From Escherichia phage phiWec181, in sequence record LC739534.1: 64,000 nucleotides of DNA. One strand, given 5' to 3'. This document shows, piece after piece, positions 4,700-27,200 of the stretch. The notes under the pieces are model-generated. The model did not search any database, had not been told where the DNA came from, and was given only the letters and a program-made list of their open reading frames with translations. How positions within the stretch are numbered: the first letter of the stretch is position 1; each line of letters begins with the position of its first letter. Made by a program: the position numbers and the translations under genes.

Positions 4700-5080
4700 T
4701 CAGGCTCCTTTACGATTATGGAAACAATCTTTCACTCGCTCTTGCACCCACTCTACACGAAGCTTGTTTTCATGCGCTCTGTTGTGGTTATGCTCTTGCA
4801 CATAGTCTTCGTAGTTCACATTAAAGGGAACACTGACAGACAATCCTGCACAACGAAATTGTTTCTTCATTTCTTTTAATGTCGCATCACTTAGGGCACA
4901 AAGCTGATTTGCCTGTTCCTCACTGAAGTTACTGTCCCACATCTCATCCCAGATAAAACTATCCAAGCATACACATAACCCATGCCTTGTGCGCTCTTTA
5001 GTATGATGATCAGCAAGCCAACTTTCATAGAAAGCTAACAACACCGGACTACTCAACGGAACATTTTTACTCTCTTGCAT
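4700..5080 (-). CDS. hypothetical protein (126 aa), member of tandem 3-paralog family
   Basis: ATG at 5080 with AGAGGAG RBS (ORF-track start 5167 judged over-extended); conserved motif. Confidence 0.6.
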   Translation of the reverse strand: MQESKNVPLSSPVLLAFYESWLADHHTKERTRHGLCVCLDSFIWDEMWDSNFSEEQANQLCALSDATLKEMKKQFRCAGLSVSVPFNVNYEDYVQEHNHNRAHENKLRVEWVQERVKDCFHNRKGA

Positions 5081-5169
5081 GATAATCTCCTCTCTTGGTT
5101 TCATGACAAACATCCTAATTCTCAACGAGGAACATCTTACGATCAATCCTCGGCAATTACAATTCATTT

Positions 5170-6581
5170 ATCATCGCTTTTCCCTATCAATTATTCTATA
5201 TATACCTGTTATTTTTGACACCCCCTTTGGTCAAATATTAATCGGCAAAATATCTGGGGGTACTCTATAAAATGATGCCCCCTGTTCCTGCAATTTATCG
5301 AGGAGAATATCATTCGACTATCATCGGCAAAGAGACAGAAAAGCCTTTGGTAGCAAGGATTTATGGCGAGTACGTCAGGACTGCTTAACGCGAATTTTTC
5401 GGCCCCTCCACTTCTGCGAGCCGGAATCCTCAAATATCAATGAGAATAATTATCATTATCATTCGTATTCAATAACTTAGGCGATCTTTTCCCCTGCTAT
5501 AAGGTCGGGCCTAACTTAACCATCACTTTTCAAACAATCCTTTATCAATCAACTACTTAACAACCTAAACATATGATTACTACGGTGTAAAGGTGCCGCC
5601 CATAACAGACTACCTATAAAATAGATGAGAATGATTATTATTCAGACAATTCTTACAACAAATCGACCAACAAATCAAGAATTTTCTTATTTTTATTCAC
5701 GTTTAAGAGAACGTGCTCAACATTCCGCTACGCGTAACGGTTCGCCCCCAAAAGATTAGCCTTTGCTTTCCTGTATATTTATACACTATGTGCAAGGTGT
5801 CGCTACACGCTCGCCTTGCCCCGCATAATCCTTCACTGTGCTAATGATTTCATAGTGCAACAATAACACTTATTATTATATTACGCTTAATTATTCTTAC
5901 ATACAATGCTAATAATAAGCCAGCGTAATTAGTGTAAGCGTAATACGCTTGCAATAATTGCAAGCTACATAATCACAAGAAATAACTATCACCGATAGTT
6001 ATGATTGTGGGGGTGTAGTTGGCTTATTATTAGCTCGCTACGTGTCCGGCGTAGCGTGCTAATGATGAGGCTTGGAATGATTCATTTTGCAATTATTACA
6101 GTCTTCACTATTTTGATAATAGTTGTTCTTTTAATGGTTTCATTTGTTATCGTTAGTTAGTTGGTTGTTTTGTAGTGTTATCGTTATCTTGCTTAGTATT
6201 CATCACGGTTTGATTGTTTGTCGTTATCAATCATCTTTCTATTATTCCTTTGATTATGATTAGTTTGCTTATTGTTTTAGGTTGTTGGTTGGTTAGTTGT
6301 TGCGAACTATTATCAACATTATAGTTATGCACTTATATTGCATAGATACGCAAGGGTAGATGATAATGGTTATCATTGCACTGGAAAGGAAGAAAACAGC
6401 CTTTTTCGGTTGTTTGTTGTTGGTTGTTGATCTATTTTAACCGCTCTAAATAGCTCTCTAACAGCCTGTTTACCTGGGGTGTATGGTTATTCGTTTGCTG
6501 GTTGATTAGCTCGATACCGCGATTTATTCAGTTTTGTTCTGTGTCGGTTTTTCATAGGCGGAATCTATCAACATTGTTCGG
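5170..6581. other. 1.4 kb non-coding region rich in palindromes and G/T-skewed short repeats
   Basis: No credible ORF; perfect inverted repeats (ATAACTATCACCGATAGTTAT, TTGCAATAATTGCAA, AGCGTAAT/ATTACGCT) and GTTATCGTTA-type repeats on one strand. Confidence 0.6.
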
Positions 6582-6621
6582 GCAAAAAGAAAGGGCGCTT
6601 GGTGCGCCCCTTGTTTTGTTG
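6582..6621 (-). terminator. intrinsic terminator (GGGCGC-N5-GCGCCC hairpin with U-run)
   Basis: GC hairpin 6593-6609 followed on minus strand by TTTCTTTTT; lies just 3' of gene 6626-7045. Confidence 0.6.
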
Positions 6622-6625
6622 TCGA

Positions 6626-7045
6626 TTATAACGCTTCATAGATTGAGTAGATCCGGTTCGCCAGGTCATTACGAAAGCGGAATTTTTCATCACGTTTAAT
6701 CATCAGATCCTTAAAACCGCATTCTTTCAAGGCTTCATTAACTTTACTGCGGCATACTTTCATATTGTCCTGCGCGTCACCAATAAACTTATTGCTATGA
6801 TGCATTGCTTTGATCTCTTCCTCCAGGACCAGGGCAACTACACGGATCGGATCAAGCTGATACGCGGTAACATCCATGCGGCATTGTAAACGGCTTTTAA
6901 CATCGTTTACCGGATACACTGCAACCTCTTCCCCGTCAACGTTCACGATAACCAGTTTGCCATCAATTTCGAAGCCTTTAGCGGCGCTACCGTGACAAAA
7001 AGCGTTATCGAAGGAGTAAGCCGGATTATTTGATTTAATGTTCAT
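6626..7045 (-). CDS. hypothetical protein (139 aa)
   Basis: ATG at 7045; promoter upstream, terminator downstream. Confidence 0.6.
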   Translation of the reverse strand: MNIKSNNPAYSFDNAFCHGSAAKGFEIDGKLVIVNVDGEEVAVYPVNDVKSRLQCRMDVTAYQLDPIRVVALVLEEEIKAMHHSNKFIGDAQDNMKVCRSKVNEALKECGFKDLMIKRDEKFRFRNDLANRIYSIYEAL

Positions 7046-7087
7046 GTTGTTGTCCTTTGTTTGGTTGCGTTGTTTGCTGCCAGTGAG

Positions 7088-7122
7088 TTAAATATAATAT
7101 AACGCCGATCCCCTGTCAATAG
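7088..7122 (-). promoter_or_regulatory. sigma70-like promoter (TTGACA, ~18 nt spacer, TATATT) inside CCCCTATTGACAGGGG palindrome
   Basis: Hexamers read on minus strand upstream of gene 6626-7045. Confidence 0.45.
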
Positions 7123-7154
7123 GGGATAGCGTATTATTTACATTTCTTTACGTT

Positions 7155-7178
7155 AAAGGGCGCTTAGTGCGCCCTTGT
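7155..7178 (-). terminator. terminator/attenuator-like hairpin (GGGCGC-N5-GCGCCC)
   Basis: Hairpin directly 3' of gene 7185-7553; only a short U tract follows. Confidence 0.35.
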
Positions 7179-7184
7179 ATAATC

Positions 7185-7553
7185 TTACTTTGTGCGGTTG
7201 TGAACGTTATCGCGTTCAACCATCAAGGCAAGGCGGATCAGTTGATCAGTTGTATCGCGTAAGCTGTCAGGCCATGTCTTATAGTTCCAGCTATCCAGGT
7301 TTGATTGTATATAGGTTTCAATCGCTTGATCCATATTATCAAACAAGTTTTCCTCCAAGCTCTCGGCTGTTTCACACTGGAAAGCATCAGCGACACTATT
7401 AATCAATAAGCAAGCCAGTAAATCAGCGTTGCGCCAATTTTTACGGATAGTTTCATCTGTCAGATAACCAACGAGATTAACCTTTGCGCCAGTGGTGGAC
7501 GTTGCGATCACTTCTTGCGCTTTTTCAACTGCTTTAATTGCTGATTTGCTCAT
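7185..7553 (-). CDS. hypothetical protein (122 aa)
   Basis: ATG at 7553 with AAGAGGAAAAG RBS. Confidence 0.6.
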   Translation of the reverse strand: MSKSAIKAVEKAQEVIATSTTGAKVNLVGYLTDETIRKNWRNADLLACLLINSVADAFQCETAESLEENLFDNMDQAIETYIQSNLDSWNYKTWPDSLRDTTDQLIRLALMVERDNVHNRTK

Positions 7554-7631
7554 CTTCTTTTCCTCTTTGTGGGCTTGCTGTATTGCTTGCCCTACGCAAT
7601 AACTATAAGTTAACAGGGTGTATAAAGCAAG

Positions 7632-7865
7632 CTATTTTTTATAAAATTTTTCTGCTGTGATATTCTTCCCTGTAGGCTTAACCGCTTGCAAAATCTTATC
7701 ATGTGCCGAACGTCCAAAGGAATAAGATCCGTAAACGGTAAACCAATAATCGCCATTGGGTTGCACGGTTACGGCGGCGTATGGTGTACCTCTCTCATTA
7801 TCACCGATAAAGTGTGAAACATTGCCGTTAACGTTCGATTTAGTGCTTTTAATTTGTCCGATCAT
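7632..7865 (-). CDS. hypothetical protein (77 aa)
   Basis: ORF with promoter-hairpin cassette upstream. Confidence 0.5.
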   Translation of the reverse strand: MIGQIKSTKSNVNGNVSHFIGDNERGTPYAAVTVQPNGDYWFTVYGSYSFGRSAHDKILQAVKPTGKNITAEKFYKK

Positions 7866-7945
7866 GGTGTTATTCCTATATTAGACGGGAAACATTCCCG
7901 CCCTACGTGATAAATAATAATATAAGCGTGATCCGGTGTCAATAG
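7866..7945 (-). promoter_or_regulatory. promoter + 5'-UTR hairpin cassette (GGGAA-loop-TTCCC variant)
   Basis: -35 TTGACA, -10-like hexamer, GC hairpin, GA-rich RBS, all read on minus strand. Confidence 0.5.
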
Positions 7946-8081
7946 GTAGAATTGTAAAGATTTGATAGTTTGTCTCTTTGTTGTTTTGTTGTTTGATAGA
8001 TGTTAGCTATCAATATATAGCGGGGTCGTCCGGTGATTACCTCCCCCGTTGCCAGTGCCGCCCGTTCAATAAGCATAACAA

Positions 8082-8112
8082 AAAACAGGACAAAAGCAAG
8101 CCCTGTTTTGTA
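8082..8112 (-). terminator. candidate intrinsic terminator
   Basis: ACAGG/CCTGT hairpin followed by TTTTTGTT on minus strand, 3' of gene 8117-8320. Confidence 0.35.
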
Positions 8113-8116
8113 AAGA

Positions 8117-8320
8117 TTAGATGATCTGCATATCCTCCACGATAATTTCTAATTTCCAAACAAGATGATCTAAGCTCCCTGATAAAAATGATTCCGATAC
8201 ATAACCGCCATCGGACACCGTAGCAAGGATCTCGCCATTTGCTTGCTCTTTGATTTGAACATCCAGGCGGTTAGCCTTTGCTTTGTTCAGGACGGCGATC
8301 AGGCGGTTAGCTGTAGTCAT
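8117..8320 (-). CDS. hypothetical protein (67 aa)
   Basis: ORF with cassette upstream. Confidence 0.5.
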   Translation of the reverse strand: MTTANRLIAVLNKAKANRLDVQIKEQANGEILATVSDGGYVSESFLSGSLDHLVWKLEIIVEDMQII

Positions 8321-8404
8321 GGTGTTTTCCTTTCAGTTGTGAGCGGCACCATTGCCGCCCTACGTGATACATCTTACACTATCAGATACATTGTGCAAGC
8401 TATT
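8321..8404 (-). promoter_or_regulatory. promoter + 5'-UTR hairpin cassette (GCGGCA-CCAT-TGCCGC)
   Basis: Minus strand reads TTGCAC, 16 nt, TAAGAT, hairpin, GGAAAACACC, ATG. Confidence 0.55.
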
Positions 8405-8596
8405 TTAGATCTCGTCACCTATATAATCAGATCTGTTCTTCTCTGTCATACGTTTTAATAATTCTTGCATATCGCTTATAGCTTGCAATGTGTCTTCTTC
8501 CAGGCTTGAATCCACATAGTCAGGATCATTCTTTACCTTGCTATGGTTATGATAGCGCAACGCTGCTAATACCTTTCTAACTTGTTCCACGTTCAT
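8405..8596 (-). CDS. hypothetical protein (63 aa)
   Basis: ATG at 8596. Confidence 0.5.
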   Translation of the reverse strand: MNVEQVRKVLAALRYHNHSKVKNDPDYVDSSLEEDTLQAISDMQELLKRMTEKNRSDYIGDEI

Positions 8597-8605
8597 GATG
8601 TACCC

Positions 8606-8740
8606 TTAAAATAGTGTGCCGATGGAAGATAGCAGGTCACTAATAACCAGGACCAGATCTACTATCACATATCTAATCAGGAAGGGGATTAGCGCCAGCG
8701 TCGCTACTATGATCCCCATTGTCATGATTACCTTTCTCAT
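8606..8740 (-). CDS. small hydrophobic peptide (44 aa, predicted membrane)
   Basis: Below ORF-track cutoff; ATG overlaps upstream stop as ATGA; hydrophobic core IIVATLALIPFLI. Confidence 0.4.
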   Translation of the reverse strand: MRKVIMTMGIIVATLALIPFLIRYVIVDLVLVISDLLSSIGTLF

Positions 8741-9027
8741 TGTTGGCGGTTTACATAAGCTTTACCGTTTACGGTCATCGGTATGGCCTCAAGGTCTGGA
8801 TCTTCCTTAAGGTCGCGTGCAAGCTCACCGCACCGGACACCCTCGAATCCGTGGTATTCTGTTTCCCCGTTCTTAAAAGTTTTAGCGGCAAGGCATAGGC
8901 GATAATTAACACCGATCCGGTTTACTGCGTTGATATCGGTTAACGTGATCGATTCCGGCAAATCGTTAGCCATTACAGGCGCGTTAATACCAACAACCAG
9001 GGCAACTACTGCGATCATCTTTTTCAT
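8737..9027 (-). CDS. secreted/periplasmic protein (96 aa, N-terminal signal peptide)
   Basis: N-terminus MKKMIAVVALVVGINAPVMA is a typical Sec signal peptide. Confidence 0.6.
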   Translation of the reverse strand: MKKMIAVVALVVGINAPVMANDLPESITLTDINAVNRIGVNYRLCLAAKTFKNGETEYHGFEGVRCGELARDLKEDPDLEAIPMTVNGKAYVNRQQ

Positions 9028-9062
9028 GTGTCTATCCTCTTCCTATTGCGTTTAATGGGGCG

Positions 9063-9299
9063 TTATTGATTGATGTTATGATGAAAGTTATTTTCTTCAA
9101 CGGCTTTTAAAATAAAGGCTGTTACCGCTTTCGTGTCTACTTGTTCGAACGTATCAGAATAAGCCCAATAATAATCATCCCCTACTTTAGGCGGGTAAAC
9201 CTGGACAAGGAGATCGCCACCTGGTTGATCTATAAGCTCAACATGTAAGCCGGATGATTCAGCGGTTTTAACGGCGTTTAATACTGTTGCAATACTCAT
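9063..9299 (-). CDS. hypothetical protein (78 aa)
   Basis: ATG at 9299 with AAAGGAAAAG RBS. Confidence 0.5.
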   Translation of the reverse strand: MSIATVLNAVKTAESSGLHVELIDQPGGDLLVQVYPPKVGDDYYWAYSDTFEQVDTKAVTAFILKAVEENNFHHNINQ

Positions 9300-9343
9300 A
9301 ATCTTTTCCTTTCTAATGTGGGGCGTTGCCGCCCCTTTGTTGA

Positions 9344-9643
9344 TTAGATCGCTGTTTCCAGTAGTTCGGCTAACGTCTTACCGCCTGATAGTTGGTCTAA
9401 CGTTTGCTCTTCTGACAAGAAATTAGCGGATATTAAACCGACCTGGTTCCCTTTGTGCCAGTTAGCCTGGCGGGTGATTCCATCCTTTAAGGATTTTACC
9501 GCCATTGTGCAACCATCACCAAATGATTCATTTTTATGGTCCATCACTTCATAAGCGCCCAGCTTGCTGCTGTTAGGCACCATTAACGCGAATACATCAC
9601 CAACAACCAGTTTTTCTACGGTAACAATAGCGATAGTTTCCAT
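9344..9643 (-). CDS. hypothetical protein (99 aa)
   Basis: ATG at 9643 with GAGGAAAAC RBS; cassette upstream. Confidence 0.55.
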   Translation of the reverse strand: METIAIVTVEKLVVGDVFALMVPNSSKLGAYEVMDHKNESFGDGCTMAVKSLKDGITRQANWHKGNQVGLISANFLSEEQTLDQLSGGKTLAELLETAI

Positions 9644-9724
9644 TTTGTTTTCCTCATTATCGGCGGCACCATTGCCGCCCTACGTGGTAAATATTATCAC
9701 ACTGGCGATCTGTGTCAATACTTT
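9644..9724 (-). promoter_or_regulatory. promoter + 5'-UTR hairpin cassette (GGCGGCACCATTGCCGCC)
   Basis: TTGACA -35 and hairpin ahead of gene 9344-9643. Confidence 0.55.
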
Positions 9725-10111
9725 TTATTCAATATAAATCAAATTATCTTCACCAATGTAAGCCGACACGTCCGGCATGAATTTAGCGGCATTTGTTAGG
9801 CGGTTGGCTGTGTTAGTAGTGTATATTTCAGGGCGATCCCAAAATCCTACGCCGTGACCGTTACGGGTAAAATGTAAATCATTCCCGATCTGGTTGGCTG
9901 TAGCGCCGTCGCTCATTGCTTCCGCAATAGCGGCAACGTTAGCATTACAAAATGATGTAACATCGTCCGCGATACGGTCCAGGGCTTGAGAAGAAAAATC
10001 ATAATCGTCTAAGTTATCAATAAAATCACCTTCGTGATCCCTGGCTGATTCAGCAAAAATAAAAACGTCTTTATAACCGTTGATGATTTCGTTAATGATT
10101 TCTGTTTTCAT
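9725..10111 (-). CDS. hypothetical acidic protein (128 aa)
   Basis: ATG at 10111 with GA-rich RBS. Confidence 0.55.
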   Translation of the reverse strand: MKTEIINEIINGYKDVFIFAESARDHEGDFIDNLDDYDFSSQALDRIADDVTSFCNANVAAIAEAMSDGATANQIGNDLHFTRNGHGVGFWDRPEIYTTNTANRLTNAAKFMPDVSAYIGEDNLIYIE

Positions 10112-10125
10112 GTTGTGTCTCTCTT

Positions 10126-10230
10126 TTAACCGATACCGTGGGAAGATAGGATCATATTAGCCATAGTTGCAACCACTCCAACCGATAACGCCAGGCCAAC
10201 TACTGCAACCGTGAAAATTTTCTCTAACAT
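10126..10230 (-). CDS. small hydrophobic peptide (34 aa)
   Basis: Below ORF-track cutoff; has its own cassette upstream (10233-10311); hydrophobic translation. Confidence 0.4.
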   Translation of the reverse strand: MLEKIFTVAVVGLALSVGVVATMANMILSSHGIG

Positions 10231-10232
10231 GA

Positions 10233-10311
10233 TGCTACCCTCATTAATGGGCGTTGCCTTATTGCCCCGCCCTACGTAATACAGTTTACCCGATTTATAA
10301 TTGTTGTCAAA
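10233..10311 (-). promoter_or_regulatory. promoter + 5'-UTR hairpin cassette (imperfect GGGCGGGGC variant)
   Basis: TTGACA, 17 nt, AAACTG, then GC hairpin, read on minus strand. Confidence 0.45.
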
Positions 10312-10581
10312 TTATTTTTTCAAGCTTGACCACTCAAAACACGGCGGGATCTCGTTAAAACTTGCACCCTGTAAAGCACATAATTTTTTAGCAATAGCCG
10401 CCGTAACCTGGCGTTGTACGCGCGGATCTGCTACTGATTGGAGAAAGTAGGCGGCTTTATATGTGATCATGCTTTCGCCTGTTTCCTTGTTAACGTGGTG
10501 CACTATTTTAGCCTTATCATCTTTAACCAGGGTGTAACCGGATTCGATGGCCTTGATTGCAACGTCCAATGATATTTTCAT
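10312..10581 (-). CDS. hypothetical protein (89 aa)
   Basis: Second in-frame ATG (10581) has GA-rich leader; ATG at 10593 abuts the hairpin. Confidence 0.5.
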   Translation of the reverse strand: MKISLDVAIKAIESGYTLVKDDKAKIVHHVNKETGESMITYKAAYFLQSVADPRVQRQVTAAIAKKLCALQGASFNEIPPCFEWSSLKK

Positions 10582-10593
10582 GATTTGTCTCAT

Positions 10594-10665
10594 CTGATAA
10601 GCGGGGCGGTTGTCGCCCCTGTAAAATGAATACTACGCGCTTATTTTGCTGTTGTCAACAACGGG
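10594..10665 (-). promoter_or_regulatory. promoter + 5'-UTR hairpin cassette (GGGGCGGTTGTCGCCCC)
   Basis: Cassette; -35 overlaps the 3' end of upstream gene. Confidence 0.5.
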
Positions 10666-10823
10666 CGAAAAAACTTTTTGATCTGGTTTGCTGTTAGGCG
10701 CATATCTGCTTTGAGCGTTGCCAGGCGATAAGCTTTACCCTTGATCAGTTTATGGTGTCCGGTGCCGTTGCCGATGATAACATCGATTTCACACAATACG
10801 CGGGAAGCATCAATCTTTTTCAT
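10641..10823 (-). CDS. hypothetical protein (60 aa)
   Basis: ATG at 10823 with AAAGGTAA RBS. Confidence 0.5.
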   Translation of the reverse strand: MKKIDASRVLCEIDVIIGNGTGHHKLIKGKAYRLATLKADMRLTANQIKKFFRPLLTTAK

Positions 10824-10905
10824 GTTGTTACCTTTCGTGTTATGGGGCGCTTGTCGCCCCCTGTCTGATAAAGATAATCCCTTTCGGGATATCTGTCAAC
10901 TATTT
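10824..10905 (-). promoter_or_regulatory. promoter + 5'-UTR hairpin cassette (GGGGCGCTTGTCGCCCC)
   Basis: TTGACA -35 and hairpin. Confidence 0.5.
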
Positions 10906-11091
10906 TTATTGTACGGTGTGGCGATCGCTGTATTCAGCGTAAAACTCACATCCATCGTCACGGCTATCAAGTTTAACGATGTACCCGCTATTCCAACGTT
11001 CAACTGATACTACCGGATAATACTTCCCGTTAAGGATATTTTTCACCAGGTCGCCTTTTACCAGTTCTTTCGTTTTCTTGTAAGTAGTCAT
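10906..11091 (-). CDS. hypothetical protein (61 aa)
   Basis: ATG at 11091 downstream of cassette (ORF-track start 11172 runs through the promoter). Confidence 0.5.
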   Translation of the reverse strand: MTTYKKTKELVKGDLVKNILNGKYYPVVSVERWNSGYIVKLDSRDDGCEFYAEYSDRHTVQ

Positions 11092-11175
11092 GATGTTTTC
11101 TCTTCTGTTTTGCGGTGGACCGTTCCGCCGCCCTATGTAATAAACTATACGCGCCAACGTTCCAGGCGTCAAGTA
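11092..11175 (-). promoter_or_regulatory. promoter + 5'-UTR hairpin cassette (GGCGGCGGAACGGTCCACCGC)
   Basis: TTGACG, 17 nt, TATAGT, hairpin, GA-rich RBS. Confidence 0.5.
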
Positions 11176-11289
11176 TATTTTTAAAATTATTTTCTACAAC
11201 GTAAAACGCCCCAGCATAAGCCAGGGCGCACTAATTAAATCAGGTAGGGGATTGCATTGCCTTACACCTTTTAGGCTGTTAGCTGGCGA

Positions 11290-11517
11290 TTAGTAGCGTA
11301 GGATGTTTACACGCTCATCCCGCCCCAAGATATCTTCATATCTGTTTCCCCTTCCTTCGTACCAGATGATCACGGTGTCAGGATCAAACGGATTGTTTTC
11401 GATAGCCGTTACCTTACAAAAATCATAAAACGGGAACGGATAAACGCCAACCTGTAAACGCGCCCGATCTCCTGGGCGAATGGTAGCGGCACGATCTGCA
11501 ATGACATTGTTATACAT
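11290..11517 (-). CDS. hypothetical protein (75 aa)
   Basis: ATG at 11517 with AAGGGG RBS. Confidence 0.5.
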   Translation of the reverse strand: MYNNVIADRAATIRPGDRARLQVGVYPFPFYDFCKVTAIENNPFDPDTVIIWYEGRGNRYEDILGRDERVNILRY

Positions 11518-11527
11518 AGTAAGCCCC

Positions 11528-11806
11528 TTAACGATTATAAACATTGTGGATGGCATCGAAAGCAAGCCGACCATAAGCCGCCAAATCGGGATTGATCCAG
11601 GCGTTATCTAACATCGTTTCAAGGACTGTGGAATCATCGTATAAAGCATCATAAAAATCTGCACGGATGATCGTTTCAATATCGTCCGGTGTTAGTTCCC
11701 TGTTAAGGTTGCAAACCGCTAAAACGTCCACCAATAATTTCCAATCTTGCAAATTAGTGGTTAATACTGTTTTCATTTCTTCGGTTGTGAGTTTAACGAT
11801 GGTCAT
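11528..11806 (-). CDS. hypothetical protein (92 aa)
   Basis: ATG at 11806; cassette upstream. Confidence 0.55.
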   Translation of the reverse strand: MTIVKLTTEEMKTVLTTNLQDWKLLVDVLAVCNLNRELTPDDIETIIRADFYDALYDDSTVLETMLDNAWINPDLAAYGRLAFDAIHNVYNR

Positions 11807-11883
11807 GATTTTATCTCTCTGTTAGGCGGGGCGCTTGTCGCCCCTATGTGATACACTTTATCAGATTGGTTGGGCTTGTCAAA
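11807..11883 (-). promoter_or_regulatory. promoter + 5'-UTR hairpin cassette (GGGGCGCTTGTCGCCCC)
   Basis: TTGACA -35 and hairpin. Confidence 0.5.
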
Positions 11884-11994
11884 CTATTTTTTCTTTTTCT
11901 TTGCTTCCAACCGTCTAAGGTTACGGCTTGACTTATTGCGCAAGGCGCTTAGATCGTCGTACCCTTTCCATGCTTGCATATCTTTCGGATTCAT
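11884..11994 (-). CDS. small basic protein (36 aa)
   Basis: ATG at 11994 with AAGGGGG RBS; K/R-rich. Confidence 0.35.
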   Translation of the reverse strand: MNPKDMQAWKGYDDLSALRNKSSRNLRRLEAKKKKK

Positions 11995-12004
11995 GTTAGC
12001 CCCC

Positions 12005-12211
12005 TTAACGCGTTGCGTAAATAATATGACTTGCCGGACTACTGCAAACCAGGTTAAGCGGCTTGCTGTTATATTGCATCTTGTCGGCTTGTTTGCTTGC
12101 TGCGATGATTCCATCTATTACACGTTGCAAACTAACCTTTACCGCCTTTTTTGCCAACCGTTGACGCTTTACCAGTGCCTGGATCTTTTTCTTGTCTGCG
12201 TTGCTTAACAT
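12005..12211 (-). CDS. basic protein (68 aa)
   Basis: ATG at 12211 with AAGGGCG RBS. Confidence 0.5.
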   Translation of the reverse strand: MLSNADKKKIQALVKRQRLAKKAVKVSLQRVIDGIIAASKQADKMQYNSKPLNLVCSSPASHIIYATR

Positions 12212-12220
12212 GGTGCGCCC

Positions 12221-12400
12221 TTACTTGTTAGCCGGATTGTATGCCAGGATCGCGCCGCTTGCTTTCACGCTTTCATCTTCATAGTTGCGCAGATCGTTTT
12301 CTGTAAGATTGAGCGCGATCACTTCCTCGATCTCAATGCCAGTGGCAAGGGCGATCTCTTTAATGATGTTTGATGATCTGATAACGTTTACTGTTTTCAT
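12221..12400 (-). CDS. hypothetical protein (59 aa)
   Basis: ATG at 12400 with AAGGTG RBS. Confidence 0.45.
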   Translation of the reverse strand: MKTVNVIRSSNIIKEIALATGIEIEEVIALNLTENDLRNYEDESVKASGAILAYNPANK

Positions 12401-12410
12401 GGTGTGCACC

Positions 12411-12530
12411 TTATAAGATGATTGATAAGATAGTGATAACGAAAGCGATAACACCAACGGCGATCGTAGTCTTACGCCCTTCGGATACTGCCGGATTCTC
12501 TACCGTGTATTCTACTGTGTATTTGTTCAT
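12411..12530 (-). CDS. small peptide with C-terminal transmembrane segment (39 aa)
   Basis: Below ORF-track cutoff; cassette upstream; hydrophobic C-terminus. Confidence 0.4.
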   Translation of the reverse strand: MNKYTVEYTVENPAVSEGRKTTIAVGVIAFVITILSIIL

Positions 12531-12629
12531 TGTGTTATCCTCTCGCTTGCTTTGAGAACTATTCCCGCCGCCCTATGAATTAAATATACACTATCCCAAA
12601 ATGATTGCAAGCCTTTTTCTAAATTATTT
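12531..12629 (-). promoter_or_regulatory. promoter + 5'-UTR hairpin cassette (GC hairpin variant)
   Basis: Hairpin and promoter hexamers between genes. Confidence 0.45.
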
Positions 12630-12914
12630 TTATGCAGTAAACAGACCATCATTTACAACGGCGGCGATGATCTCCCGTGCCATTGATTCAGGGAACGGGG
12701 CGCTATAGTCCTGGCTTGTCTCGTCGCTGTCTGTTACCCAATGATAAGCCAACGAGTAAAAGCCTTTACTCCCTGTTTTCAGTGAAACGATGATCACTCG
12801 GTTAAGTCCATCGGTAAACGTTGCCGTTAATGTGTTATCATCTTGCGTCATGTTGGACAAGTAAGCGGCATCATTAACCAGGGAAAACAGTAGCACCGTG
12901 TTAGCTTTAACCAT
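12630..12914 (-). CDS. hypothetical protein (94 aa)
   Basis: ATG at 12914 with GAGGATC RBS; ORF-track start at 12944 is an ATG inside the cassette hairpin. Confidence 0.5.
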   Translation of the reverse strand: MVKANTVLLFSLVNDAAYLSNMTQDDNTLTATFTDGLNRVIIVSLKTGSKGFYSLAYHWVTDSDETSQDYSAPFPESMAREIIAAVVNDGLFTA

Positions 12915-12944
12915 GATTTGATCCTCAAACGGGCGCGGCACCAT

Positions 12945-13015
12945 TGCCGCCCTACGTAATACACTTTACCTTATTTCTTCCAAAAAGCAAGTTTATTTGC
13001 AATTGGTGACAAATA
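12945..13015 (-). promoter_or_regulatory. promoter + 5'-UTR hairpin cassette (GCGGCACCATTGCCGC)
   Basis: -35 TTGCTT lies inside the last codons of upstream gene. Confidence 0.5.
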
Positions 13016-19771: not shown

Positions 19772-19774
19772 TCT

Positions 19775-19802
19775 TGACAAGCCCAGGGATCGGGCTTATA
19801 CT
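19775..19802 (+). promoter_or_regulatory. near-consensus sigma70 promoter (TTGACA, 16 nt, TATACT) with no downstream ORF
   Basis: Hexamers read directly; no plus-strand ORF over 30 aa for the next 6 kb. Confidence 0.55.
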
Positions 19803-20029
19803 GTTTTACATACAGAAGAGGAAGCGCCACCCCACGGCGTAAAGGCGGGGCTAACATACCAGGGGCACTGGTTGGAAGGTCGATCGCCGGGAGGCTGGGC
19901 GCTATATATTTGTAAAGAAATGTAAAGATAAAATAATCGCTTGCTTTCCTGGCTGGATCTGTTATTCTTATTACATGGCGAGGGGACACGGGAGCGCGAG
20001 ACAATCACCGGACCTGCCCGTCATTCTGC

Positions 20030-20150
20030 AAATGAGAAAAATTCTCATTTGCAAATAAGACTCATTCGCATTTAATAATTGAATGAGAATCATTCTCATT
20101 CTCATTCGTATTTCGATTTTAAGTGAGAATAATTCTCATTTCGGTAATTT
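20030..20150. repeat. three palindromic TGAGAAT-N-ATTCTCA sites (operator-like)
   Basis: TGAGAAAAATTCTCA, ATGAGAATCATTCTCAT, GTGAGAATAATTCTCAT read directly. Confidence 0.6.
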
Positions 20151-20151
20151 T

Positions 20152-20354
20152 CACGTAAACTTTAGAATTTGCTTTTCAACTTTCACTTTTGTAAAAGCAA
20201 AAAAACTTTAAATACCTGGTGCGCGCGACTTTTTAAAAAATTTTTCTCGGTTTTTTGCTTTGAAATCTGGCCCACCAATTTGAGATAGTGTACGTAAACT
20301 TTAGAATTTGGTTTTGGATTCTCACTTTTGTAAACTCGTAAAAAGTTTAAATAA
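20152..20354. repeat. two ~60 bp direct repeats (ACGTAAACTTTAGAATTTG...TTTGTAAA...TTTAAATA), iteron-like
   Basis: Copies at ~20152-20214 and ~20291-20354, ~85% identical, AT-rich; TTGAGATA repeated three times nearby. Confidence 0.6.
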
Positions 20355-20481
20355 TTGTAGGGATTTTGAGATAGTTTGCTTGTAAGGTTTGAGATAATCC
20401 TTCCCGAAGATGTTACGCAGCCTACAGCCTACCTGAATGCTCGTCTAACGAGATTAACTCTAAAAGATGAGTGTTGGTGTA

Positions 20482-20522
20482 GCTAAAGAGAAAAGGCTCT
20501 CTACGGTGTTGTAGGAGCCTTA
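20482..20522 (-). terminator. intrinsic terminator of minus-strand operon
   Basis: Hairpin AAGGCTC...GAGCCTT followed on minus strand by TTCTCTTT, 3' of gene 20592-21119. Confidence 0.5.
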
Positions 20523-20591
20523 TTTCTGTGGCACAAAGTTGACGTATTCTTTTTAAAAACGAATTTTTTCAAAATATCACGAATATCGCCT

Positions 20592-26246: not shown

Positions 26247-27200
26247 ATGAAATACGAAGATTTTAAACAAATAGTTAAAGACGATGTGGTATTTGAGAAC
26301 TTACAGGAAGGTTGTGAAGTCTTAGGTTGGACAGAAAGAGATAGAAACTTTGCAAAAATATACGTAATACGTTGTAGTGTTTGTGCCAAAGACCCCGAAA
26401 TGTATGGAGATGGTCTTTTTACAGCTACAAAAGGGCGTTTAGTGAAAGGTCAGAAATGTTGCGCGTGCGCTGTATCCTTTAAATACAGTCAAAACCAACA
26501 CCTAATTCTGCTAAACAGGCATTTAAGTGTCGCAGGGTACAGCATAGTTTCTATTGGTGCTTGGGAGTGTTCTAAGACGAGAATAGAGTTTAGTTGTGAG
26601 AATGGACACACGAAGAACAGAACCCTGGCTCAAGCAAAGGTAGTAGAACCTTGTAAACAGTGTCTTGAAGAAGGCTGTACAAAACACAAACAAGATGAGG
26701 CAGAGGCAAAAATTATGAAGATAATAGAAGATAAATGTTTACCTTATGTATTTGTAGGGTGGGATACTTCTTACAAGAATGTAACTTCAAAATTCAACCT
26801 CATCTGTTCGGATCACGGTTTAAAAACAATAAGATACGCTTGTTTCCTAAATGGTCATTTTTGTAACGAGTGTTCTGGTAGAAATTGCCTAAGTCTTTAT
26901 TTATTAGGAGTTTATGATAGAGACTTGTTGGTAGGTTTAAAATTTGGCATCTCTCAGAGTCCAGTAAGAAGGGTTCAACAGTTAAATAAAAGGAACTTAT
27001 TTAAATGTAAAATACTACAGATTTGGACTTTTACATCACATGATCAAGCTGTACGGATGGAAACATTATTAAAGAACACATTGCGAACTGGAATATTTAC
27101 TAAAAGAGAGATGAAAGATGGTCATACAGAAACCACAGAAGTTACTAATTTAGAAACCATAATGGACCTTATGACCTCATCTCATGGATTGGTTAGTTAA
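26247..27200 (+). CDS. zinc-ribbon repeat protein with C-terminal T5orf172/GIY-YIG-like domain (317 aa)
   Basis: RBS AAGGAGGAAAC; Cys pairs; LKFGISQSPVRRVQQL...KDGHTETT, paralog of 21663-22679. Confidence 0.6.
   Translation: MKYEDFKQIVKDDVVFENLQEGCEVLGWTERDRNFAKIYVIRCSVCAKDPEMYGDGLFTATKGRLVKGQKCCACAVSFKYSQNQHLILLNRHLSVAGYSIVSIGAWECSKTRIEFSCENGHTKNRTLAQAKVVEPCKQCLEEGCTKHKQDEAEAKIMKIIEDKCLPYVFVGWDTSYKNVTSKFNLICSDHGLKTIRYACFLNGHFCNECSGRNCLSLYLLGVYDRDLLVGLKFGISQSPVRRVQQLNKRNLFKCKILQIWTFTSHDQAVRMETLLKNTLRTGIFTKREMKDGHTETTEVTNLETIMDLMTSSHGLVS

Follow-up and report, generated by a model that had tools for sequence, protein, structure and literature searches.

What occupies an interval of 1,545 bp for which a phage genome record holds zero annotation, and which is crowded with palindromes and strand-skewed repeats? 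The interval (positions 5081-6625) lies in a 64,000-nucleotide (nt) stretch of Escherichia phage DNA, presented here under LC739534.1 and called the window at its full length. By sequence comparison the window was found to be 100% identical to Escherichia phage phiWec186 (LC739535.1; Stephanstirmvirinae, proposed ‘Wecvirus’), whose reconstructed genome measures 154,402 bp. We consider it very likely, from comparison with related phages, that the interval is the concatemer junction (i.e. the genome-end region) of a phage with T7-style direct terminal repeats (DTRs), the repeat itself being placed at 5386-5717.

The interval is non-coding. In the GenBank record both flanking genes are carried by the minus strand (4700-5080, preceded by a GGAG ribosome-binding site, and 6626-7045). 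None of 10 candidate open reading frames (ORFs) of the junction region matched a family in the PHROG search, and a codon-phase test on the substitutions among nine close relatives recovered no 3-nt periodicity across the junction. Moreover, the position and strand of the longest junction ORF differ among the phages, whose junctions often show indels of 1, 7 and 11 nt. A basic ORF of 22 amino acids (aa; minus strand, ~6558-6490) was rejected as a gene, its ATG being absent and its frame broken in phi92. A tRNA/tmRNA scan found none, Chi sites were absent from the window, and a tandem-repeat search returned only three short arrays. An earlier sequence-only reading of the window had stated that no ORF with a start and a ribosome-binding site exists at 5170-6625, which is borne out by these results for a larger interval than it named (5081-6625). 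The same reading called the region unusual for a gene-dense phage; this premise is weak, since junctions of this kind are normal in the subfamily and a second ORF-free locus (19772-20591) is present in the same window.

The physical ends of at least four relatives (phi92, Schickermooser, BME3 and Mt1B1_P17) map inside the region, in agreement with the earlier suggestion of a nick or packaging site. When eleven junctions were aligned, Schickermooser and phi92 were seen to end at identical columns, equivalent to window positions 5385|5386 and 5717|5718. Schickermooser carries an identical 329 bp at both record ends (the corresponding paper gives a terminal repeat of 328 bp), and the phi92 record annotates DTR-L and DTR-R of 343 bp. 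Two sites delimit these columns: boundary A (5382-5389, plus strand; TGCT|TAAC within the invariant TGCTTAACGCGA) and boundary B (5714-5721, plus strand; TGCT|CAAC within the invariant GCTCAACA), the latter being a direct repeat of the former. The DTR of BME3, determined with PhageTerm, is 342 bp long; its record begins 1 nt inside boundary A and shows GCT|CAAC exactly after nt 342, and the record of Mt1B1_P17 likewise begins 1 nt inside boundary A, with GCT|CAAC after nt 328. The motif common to both sites, TGCT|YAAC (in the contexts ACTGCT|TAACGCGA and CGTGCT|CAACAT), is invariant across the aligned phages, and two Klebsiella phages keep both copies, 344 bp apart. Several further records start or stop at query position 217/218, and the junction region is present in 138 phage records, many of which start or stop beside it. 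Because the relatives’ ends and the invariant boundary motifs map there, the DTR of phiWec186 is predicted to span 5386-5717 (332 bp, no strand assigned), in single copy within a circularised or concatemer-type assembly. The predicted length falls in the range of the subfamily (~317-344 bp), and the repeat would lie inside the ORF-free junction.

Two irregularities were noted among the records. For FKP3, a short DTR of 317 bp was reported from PhageTerm; its deposited sequence (PP895363.1) starts ~15 nt inside the repeat and contains a complete boundary-to-boundary repeat again at 487-830, an end arrangement that seems inconsistent with the reported DTR. Records labelled as Pseudomonas phage PsgM04F, Campylobacter phages B15, A145, C15 and C2, and Acinetobacter phage ABPW7 match these coliphages over the junction at 85-92% identity, and their host labels look doubtful.

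Several points weigh against this placement of the ends. Those of phiWec186 itself are inferred by homology to its relatives, and the paper of the phiWec authors goes no further than to say that the genomes ‘terminate with direct terminal repeats’. The motif has the same orientation at both boundaries (direct, not inverted), which a simple staggered-nick model with one symmetric enzyme does not predict. Furthermore, the 8-mer TGCTYAAC occurs in the window no more rarely than expected by chance (6 vs 4.9), and we rejected it as a signal unique by sequence; what gives it weight is where it stands and that it is invariant. A more radical objection is that the ends of the GenBank record, which share an identical 148 bp (window ~26521-26668), are the true ones, as the wording of the authors would allow, and that 5081-6625 is a mere internal intergenic regulatory region. 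We find this very improbable: the shared segment lies inside a 317-aa ORF (26247-27200) that matches the endonuclease family phrog_681 (E = 6e-59) and is split by the record opening, hence unannotated, and every relative with mapped ends points to 5386 and 5717. Considering that the 148-bp overlap sits inside this endonuclease ORF, and that the four Wec records (phiWec186 and its sisters phiWec179, 188 and 190) are permuted relative to one another, the record ends are assembly artefacts, and were rejected as physical ends.

The palindromes that characterize the interval are not an impression. Counting perfect inverted repeats with stems of at least 6 and loops of at most 8, we found 10 in the region, against 3.9 ± 2.0 in dinucleotide shuffles and an average of 4.2 ± 2.0 in same-size windows over the 154,402-bp genome, the densest of which begins at 5800. 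Every palindrome quoted by the sequence-only reading was located at or near its given place: ATAACTATCACCGATAGTTAT at 5982-6002, TTGCAATAATTGCAA at 5949-5963 (within GCTTGCAATAATTGCAAGC, 5947-5965), the copies of AGCGTAAT/ATTACGCT at 5880-5887, 5922-5929 and 5936-5950, and the AT palindromes GAATAATTATCATTATC and GAATGATTATTATTC at 5444-5460 and 5629-5643, respectively. That the region is spacer DNA with palindromes arisen by chance from its composition, or a decayed gene, would agree with its AT-richness and with some short repeat families that are weak two-copy matches; it is nevertheless hardly credible, as the palindrome density exceeds that of the shuffles and of all other genome windows, 13 base pairs covary (see below), the hairpin cluster and the T/G-rich tract are conserved more strongly than the repeat, and the region is kept in 138 records.

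Most of the quoted ‘perfect palindromes’ belong to a single conserved structure of ~155 nt, the hairpin cluster (5908-6056, plus strand). From an alignment of 20 distinct sequences (GenBank phages, IMG/VR and metagenome contigs) RNAalifold derived 48 pairs in six helices. A 15-bp closing stem joins 5908-5922 with 6020-6034, and the cluster further comprises hairpins at 5936-5950 and 5947-5965, a long hairpin that pairs 5966-5970 with 6013-6017 and holds an inner 9-bp stem with a 3-nt loop (5982-6002), and a last hairpin formed by 6036-6043 with 6049-6056. Over the 48 pairs, 98.9% of the alignment cells are paired, and 13 pairs show compensatory double changes. The observed covariation was reached by none of 500 shuffles (0/500), and sliding the partners by 1-3 columns left only 0-4 such pairs. 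The closing stem, for instance, reads AAGCCA/TGGCTT in the Wec phages, AACGCA/TGCGTT in phi92 and ACCGCA/TGCGGT in Klebsiella phages; another stem changes from CTACG/CGTAG to CTATG/CATAG, and the Klebsiella phages contribute further compensatory variants. The inner hairpin, which here is ATAACTATC-ACC-GATAGTTAT, becomes GTGACTATT-AGG-AATAGTCAC or ATTACTATT-AGG-AATAGTAAT in relatives, constantly keeping its 9 bp and 3-nt loop.

The structure is specific to one strand. Across the alignment the plus strand holds 56 G.T pairs vs 1 A.C pair, and it is more stable than the minus strand by ~18 kcal/mol in 20/20 sequences. For the cluster of the window, folding z-scores were -8.2 (plus strand as RNA), -6.4 (minus strand as RNA) and -9.3 (plus strand as DNA). 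The covariation, together with the plus-strand-only stability, shows that the cluster is a selected single-stranded structure, specific to the plus strand and acting as DNA or RNA. It is also the most conserved part of the junction (10% variable columns), and in the distant phage KP13-26 it is the only part still detected by BLAST.

If the active form were RNA, the cluster (with or without the G/U-rich tract downstream) would be a plus-strand gene for a structured non-coding RNA, antisense to its neighbours and serving in packaging or regulation close to the terminus. The covariation, the many wobbles of G.U type on the plus strand only, the z-score of -8.2 as RNA and the high conservation are all compatible with such a gene, and a hairpin at 6593-6609 could terminate plus-strand transcripts in some phages. 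We nonetheless regard it as rather unlikely. Searching the whole window against Rfam 15 (including phi29 pRNA, small RNAs and riboswitches) at the gathering score returned no match, and at a relaxed E-value the best hits in 5100-6700 (E = 0.9-4) stayed far under threshold. A scan of the plus strand upstream of the hairpins in 11 phages, confined to promoters of sigma-70 type, gave scores at genome background and positions that are not conserved. Phages of the phi92 and ZCKP1 types lack the plus-strand U-tract that follows 6609, and the G.T wobbles fit single-stranded DNA equally. The transcribed regulatory RNA offered by the sequence-only reading is thus left with neither an Rfam family nor a conserved plus-strand promoter or terminator.

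The AT palindromes form a second class of elements. Their repeat family, ATGAGAATRATTATYATT, matches the 7-1-7 Fur core TGATAATnATTATCA, which with up to two mismatches occurs 8 times in the window vs 0.58 expected. Three putative Fur boxes were recognized in the junction: box 1 (AATGAGAATAATTATCATT, 5439-5457) lies 55 bp inside boundary A and is overlapped by an ATTATC hexamer repeat that reaches 5463; box 2 is GATGAGAATGATTATTATT (5624-5642); and box 3 (GATGATAATGGTTATCATT, 6359-6377) coincides in part with a weak promoter-like site of the minus strand (TTTCCA-16-TATCAT, 6387-6360). Matches of the putative boxes to the 7-1-7 core reach 14/15 and 13/15, and box 1 agrees with the Escherichia coli 19-mer GATAATGATAATCATTATC at 17/19 positions on one strand. 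Allowing one mismatch, TGAKAATNATTMTCA is found at six sites in the whole genome (5441, 5626, 6361, 20033, 20084 and 20124), of which those at 20084 and 20124 are perfect palindromes (TGAGAATnATTCTCA) and equal the boxes of Xanthomonas and Enterococcus faecalis. The published Fur consensus of Xanthomonas is AATGAgAATcATTctCATT, Fur-regulated operons of E. faecalis carry TGAGAATGATTCTCA and TGATAACGATTCTCA, and the Fur boxes of Acinetobacter baumannii read AAATGAGAATCATTTTCATTT.

The DNA between the three boxes diverges among phAPEC8-type, phi92-type and Klebsiella phages, yet the boxes themselves hold their position. Wec, phAPEC8 and phi92 types share one and the same 19-mer at box 1, for which the Klebsiella phages have AATGCGAATCATTCTCATT at the same offset; the counterpart of box 2 in arall and phi92 has the canonical core TGATAATGATTATCA. 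Hence the ‘Fur-box-like’ label given to these palindromes holds at the sequence level, as does the idea of Fur-like protein-binding arrays, the motif being that of published Fur-box consensus sequences and its positions being conserved. The palindrome is also widespread among viral contigs: in IMG/VR the perfect form AATGAGAATnATTCTCATT was found in at least 120 contigs with G+C contents from 27% to 65%, as compared to 3 for a composition-matched control palindrome, and the G-variant and canonical Fur palindromes gave at least 120 matches each. In many of these contigs AATGAGAATnATTCTCATT directly follows an extended -10 element and a CGGCGCC-like run, an arrangement that looks like a recurrent promoter-operator cassette.

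AT-rich palindromes next to hairpins also raise the question of replication. The region could be, or contain, a replication origin in which the palindromes are initiator sites and the hairpins a lagging-strand priming signal, a role compatible with that of a junction. T7 has an origin near its right end; in phiWec186 the second ORF-free locus holds an array of four copies of the box, and folding on the plus strand only would suit a lagging-strand template or a displaced strand. On the other hand, 5081-6625 contains no DnaA box (TTWTNCACA), the extremes of the cumulative GC skew lie at ~26 kb and ~139 kb (at changes of gene orientation) rather than here, and the boxes match the host Fur site instead of known initiator sites. 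We therefore judge an origin unlikely, and the earlier suggestion of a second one, with neither DnaA boxes nor a skew switch in its favour, found no support.

The third conspicuous feature is compositional. A tract that is T/G-rich on the plus strand and A/C-rich on the minus strand spans 6081-6430 (core 6134-6300), and the quoted repeat unit GTTATCGTTA occurs in it at 6145 and 6176. Over 6100-6320 the G+T content is 70.6% (T 52%, G 19%, A 19%, C 11%), the maximum of the genome and 4.7 standard deviations over its mean; the skew described from the letters is thus real, whereas the wording ‘almost only G and T’ overstated it. The tract is nearly invariant among Phapecoctavirus-type phages, and its Justusliebigvirus version is C-poor and of different sequence. 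As it is conserved in sequence, beyond composition alone, the tract probably binds something specific.

How could these parts work together? Read from left to right, the window leaves one genome copy by its left arm and enters the previous copy by its right arm. Virion DNA would carry 5386-5717 at both ends, and the replicated concatemer would hold one repeat per junction, between right and left arms. The terminase may recognise the junction and cut at or beside the two TGCT|YAAC copies, with DNA synthesis duplicating the repeat; these sites are the best candidates for the cuts, and we infer the cut chemistry as well. A minus-strand promoter at ~5221-5193 would start left-arm transcription of the first genes, and a terminator at 6612-6590 would halt the upstream operon ahead of the junction and thereby insulate it.

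The hairpin cluster occupies the right-arm side, at 190-340 bp from boundary B. The strand on which it folds is the plus strand, whose 5' part holds the repeat; the plus-strand order is 5'-repeat-spacer-cluster-3', the 3' direction leading away from the repeat. We reason that an exposed plus strand might fold back at the cluster, so that its 3' end could prime synthesis back through the repeat. In a variant of this scheme the cluster would be a structure recognised by terminase or primase on displaced or lagging-strand DNA. Fold-back priming appears the most likely role among these options, with about an even chance of being the right one, because it is the sole geometry that fits both the right-arm position and the plus-strand-only selection. 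The Fur boxes (boxes 1 and 2 within the repeat, box 3 beside the T/G-rich tract) may recruit host Fur, which, through the repeat, would then be present at both genome ends. It could exert iron-dependent control over nearby weak promoters and early transcription or over end function; it could be architectural, comparable to host factors at the packaging sites of other phages; or it could be titrated by the amplifying phage DNA. Should titration occur, it would de-repress host iron uptake to the benefit of the phage’s own iron-dependent ribonucleotide reductase.

Taken as a whole, the proposal that the junction harbours two undescribed elements (a plus-strand cluster that guides or primes repeat regeneration as single-stranded DNA, or else a new terminus-proximal RNA, and Fur boxes that recruit or titrate Fur) is a tentative one, which we see as possible and short of probable. 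Four considerations count against the roles proposed for the cluster and the boxes: that of the cluster is deduced from position and strand bias only; a simple fold-back primer would need less than its three-way, multi-hairpin shape; only one of the three boxes (box 3) overlaps a promoter-like site, boxes 1 and 2 being free of such overlap; and Fur sites predicted from the consensus sometimes fail (PMC2189734).

Among known systems, the closest are the DTRs of other Stephanstirmvirinae (phi92, 343 bp; Schickermooser, 328-329 bp; BME3, 342 bp; FKP3, 317 bp), which occupy the orthologous locus and have the same boundary motifs, length class and flanking genes, within junctions that share the ORF-free layout of ~1.5-1.8 kb. 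They differ in that the repeat of phiWec186 is unannotated and its record is opened elsewhere. A ‘non-coding’ box had also been drawn in the genome of rV5 in the paper describing that phage. With T7 the junction has in common a short direct terminal repeat in a long non-coding junction, and early promoters just inside the left end. In T7 the repeat is duplicated during processing, for which strand-displacement and primase/hairpin models exist, and hairpin DNA containing the repeat has been seen as an intermediate (PMC4281155). There is no sequence similarity between the two, and phiWec186 has a covarying multi-hairpin cluster where T7 has one inverted repeat; the T7 RNA polymerase pause/CJ signal is inapplicable here, because phiWec186 is a myovirus dependent on host RNA polymerase. 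Strand-specific, conserved multi-hairpin elements of ~150 nt are likewise represented by the G4-type ssi, the sso of rolling-circle plasmids and the pRNA of phi29, the last being encoded beside the genome end; the likeness is one of analogy only, as the cluster has no sequence or Rfam similarity to them.

Fur boxes elsewhere front iron-uptake genes, whereas those of phiWec186 are putative sites in the terminal repeat of a virulent phage. A counterpart exists in T5-like phages, where the non-coding part of the long terminal repeat, at the left end (Salmonella phage bobsandoy, nt 160-300), contains arrays of the same box (AAATGCGAATCATTCTCATTATCATTCGCATT, AAATGATAATCATTCTCATT), and a module of box plus CATTCGYATT, shared with phiWec186, forms arrays there. 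The T5-like phages nevertheless belong to an unrelated family, have a repeat of ~10 kb and carry the boxes beside DnaA-box-like and LexA-box-like sequences. In bobsandoy (MT074464.1, nt 1-510) we observed, in addition to the Fur-box-like array, three DnaA-box-like TGTGGATAA and a perfect LexA-box-like palindrome (TACTGTATATTTATACAGTA); its genome end thus appears to carry a cluster of host-factor sites.

The type of junction is already known in the subfamily, and phiWec186 is a further, unannotated case. In the literature searched, whose coverage was incomplete, we found no description of any element inside these repeats, of the shared boundary motif, of the covarying plus-strand hairpin cluster, or of position-conserved Fur boxes in the repeat or their T5-like counterpart. 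The main identity is ordinary, and the two conserved sub-elements (the cluster and the Fur boxes) merit experiment. On the practical side, the phiWec186 record opens inside a gene, and ends predicted at 5386 and 5717 bear on annotation, engineering and packaging-based tools. The cluster and its surroundings would provide testable cis elements for end regeneration in myoviruses with short DTRs, a question studied mainly in T7, and the putative Fur boxes that two unrelated groups of coliphages carry in their terminal repeats point to a possible, cheaply tested connection between the iron status of the host and the ends of phage DNA.

The remaining parts of the junction are conserved to different degrees. 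A left-end unique leader (5081-5385, minus strand) runs from the repeat to the first gene (4700-5080) and contains an invariant block (5183-5225) that is present in 11/11 aligned phages, phi92 included. This block holds a putative sigma-70-like promoter on the minus strand, with a -35 GTGTCA (5221-5216), a 17-nt spacer and a -10 TAGAAT (5198-5193). The predicted repeat, on whose columns the 329-bp and 343-bp repeats of Schickermooser and phi92 coincide, has a moderately conserved interior apart from its ends and the two boxes (38% variable columns; ~60-70% similarity among Wec, phAPEC8 and phi92 types), and the hairpin cluster and T/G tract are better conserved than the repeat itself. Between repeat and cluster lies a hypervariable spacer (5718-5905; 53% variable columns, many indels). 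A conserved palindrome (TATGCACTTATATTGCATA, 6326-6344) adjoins putative Fur box 3. It is followed by a conserved segment (6436-6589) with similarity as far as Vequintavirus Av-05, which shows 82.6% identity over 6506-6614; a small ORF within 6436-6614 is not conserved.

The intrinsic terminator of gene 6626-7045 (6612-6590, minus strand) consists of 9 pairs (6 G-C) followed by the U-tract CTTTCTTTTT; it is annotated in phAPEC8 and Schickermooser, and both its stem and its minus-strand T-run are conserved. The plus strand is also terminator-like at 6593-6609, in some phages only.

Beyond the junction, the ‘phage-specific promoters’ that PHIRE assigned in phAPEC8 (GTAGGGCGGCAATGGTGCCGCC; 9280-9336, 10695-10714 and 11926-11945) are G+C-rich stem-loops just downstream of sigma-70 promoters, and look like promoter-plus-5'-hairpin cassettes rather than promoters; the counterpart of this early region in the window is ~7000-13000.

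The second ORF-free locus of the window (19772-20591) lies between convergent genes. A strong plus-strand promoter-like sequence (TTGACA-17-TATACT, 19774-19802) leads into a GC-rich segment (~19815-20030) whose sequence is conserved across 405 phage records (Vequintavirinae such as PVP-SE1 and phages of Klebsiella, Cronobacter and Pectobacterium among them) and which is not coding, since it carries indels of 5, 9 and 1 nt. The GC-rich element (19772-20030) had no Rfam match and its folding z-scores were not significant. After the GC-rich segment come the four Fur-box palindromes (20030-20141) and then 62-nt direct repeats at 20153-20214 and 20292-20353; the locus is possibly a cis element or a small RNA gene so far unrecognised.

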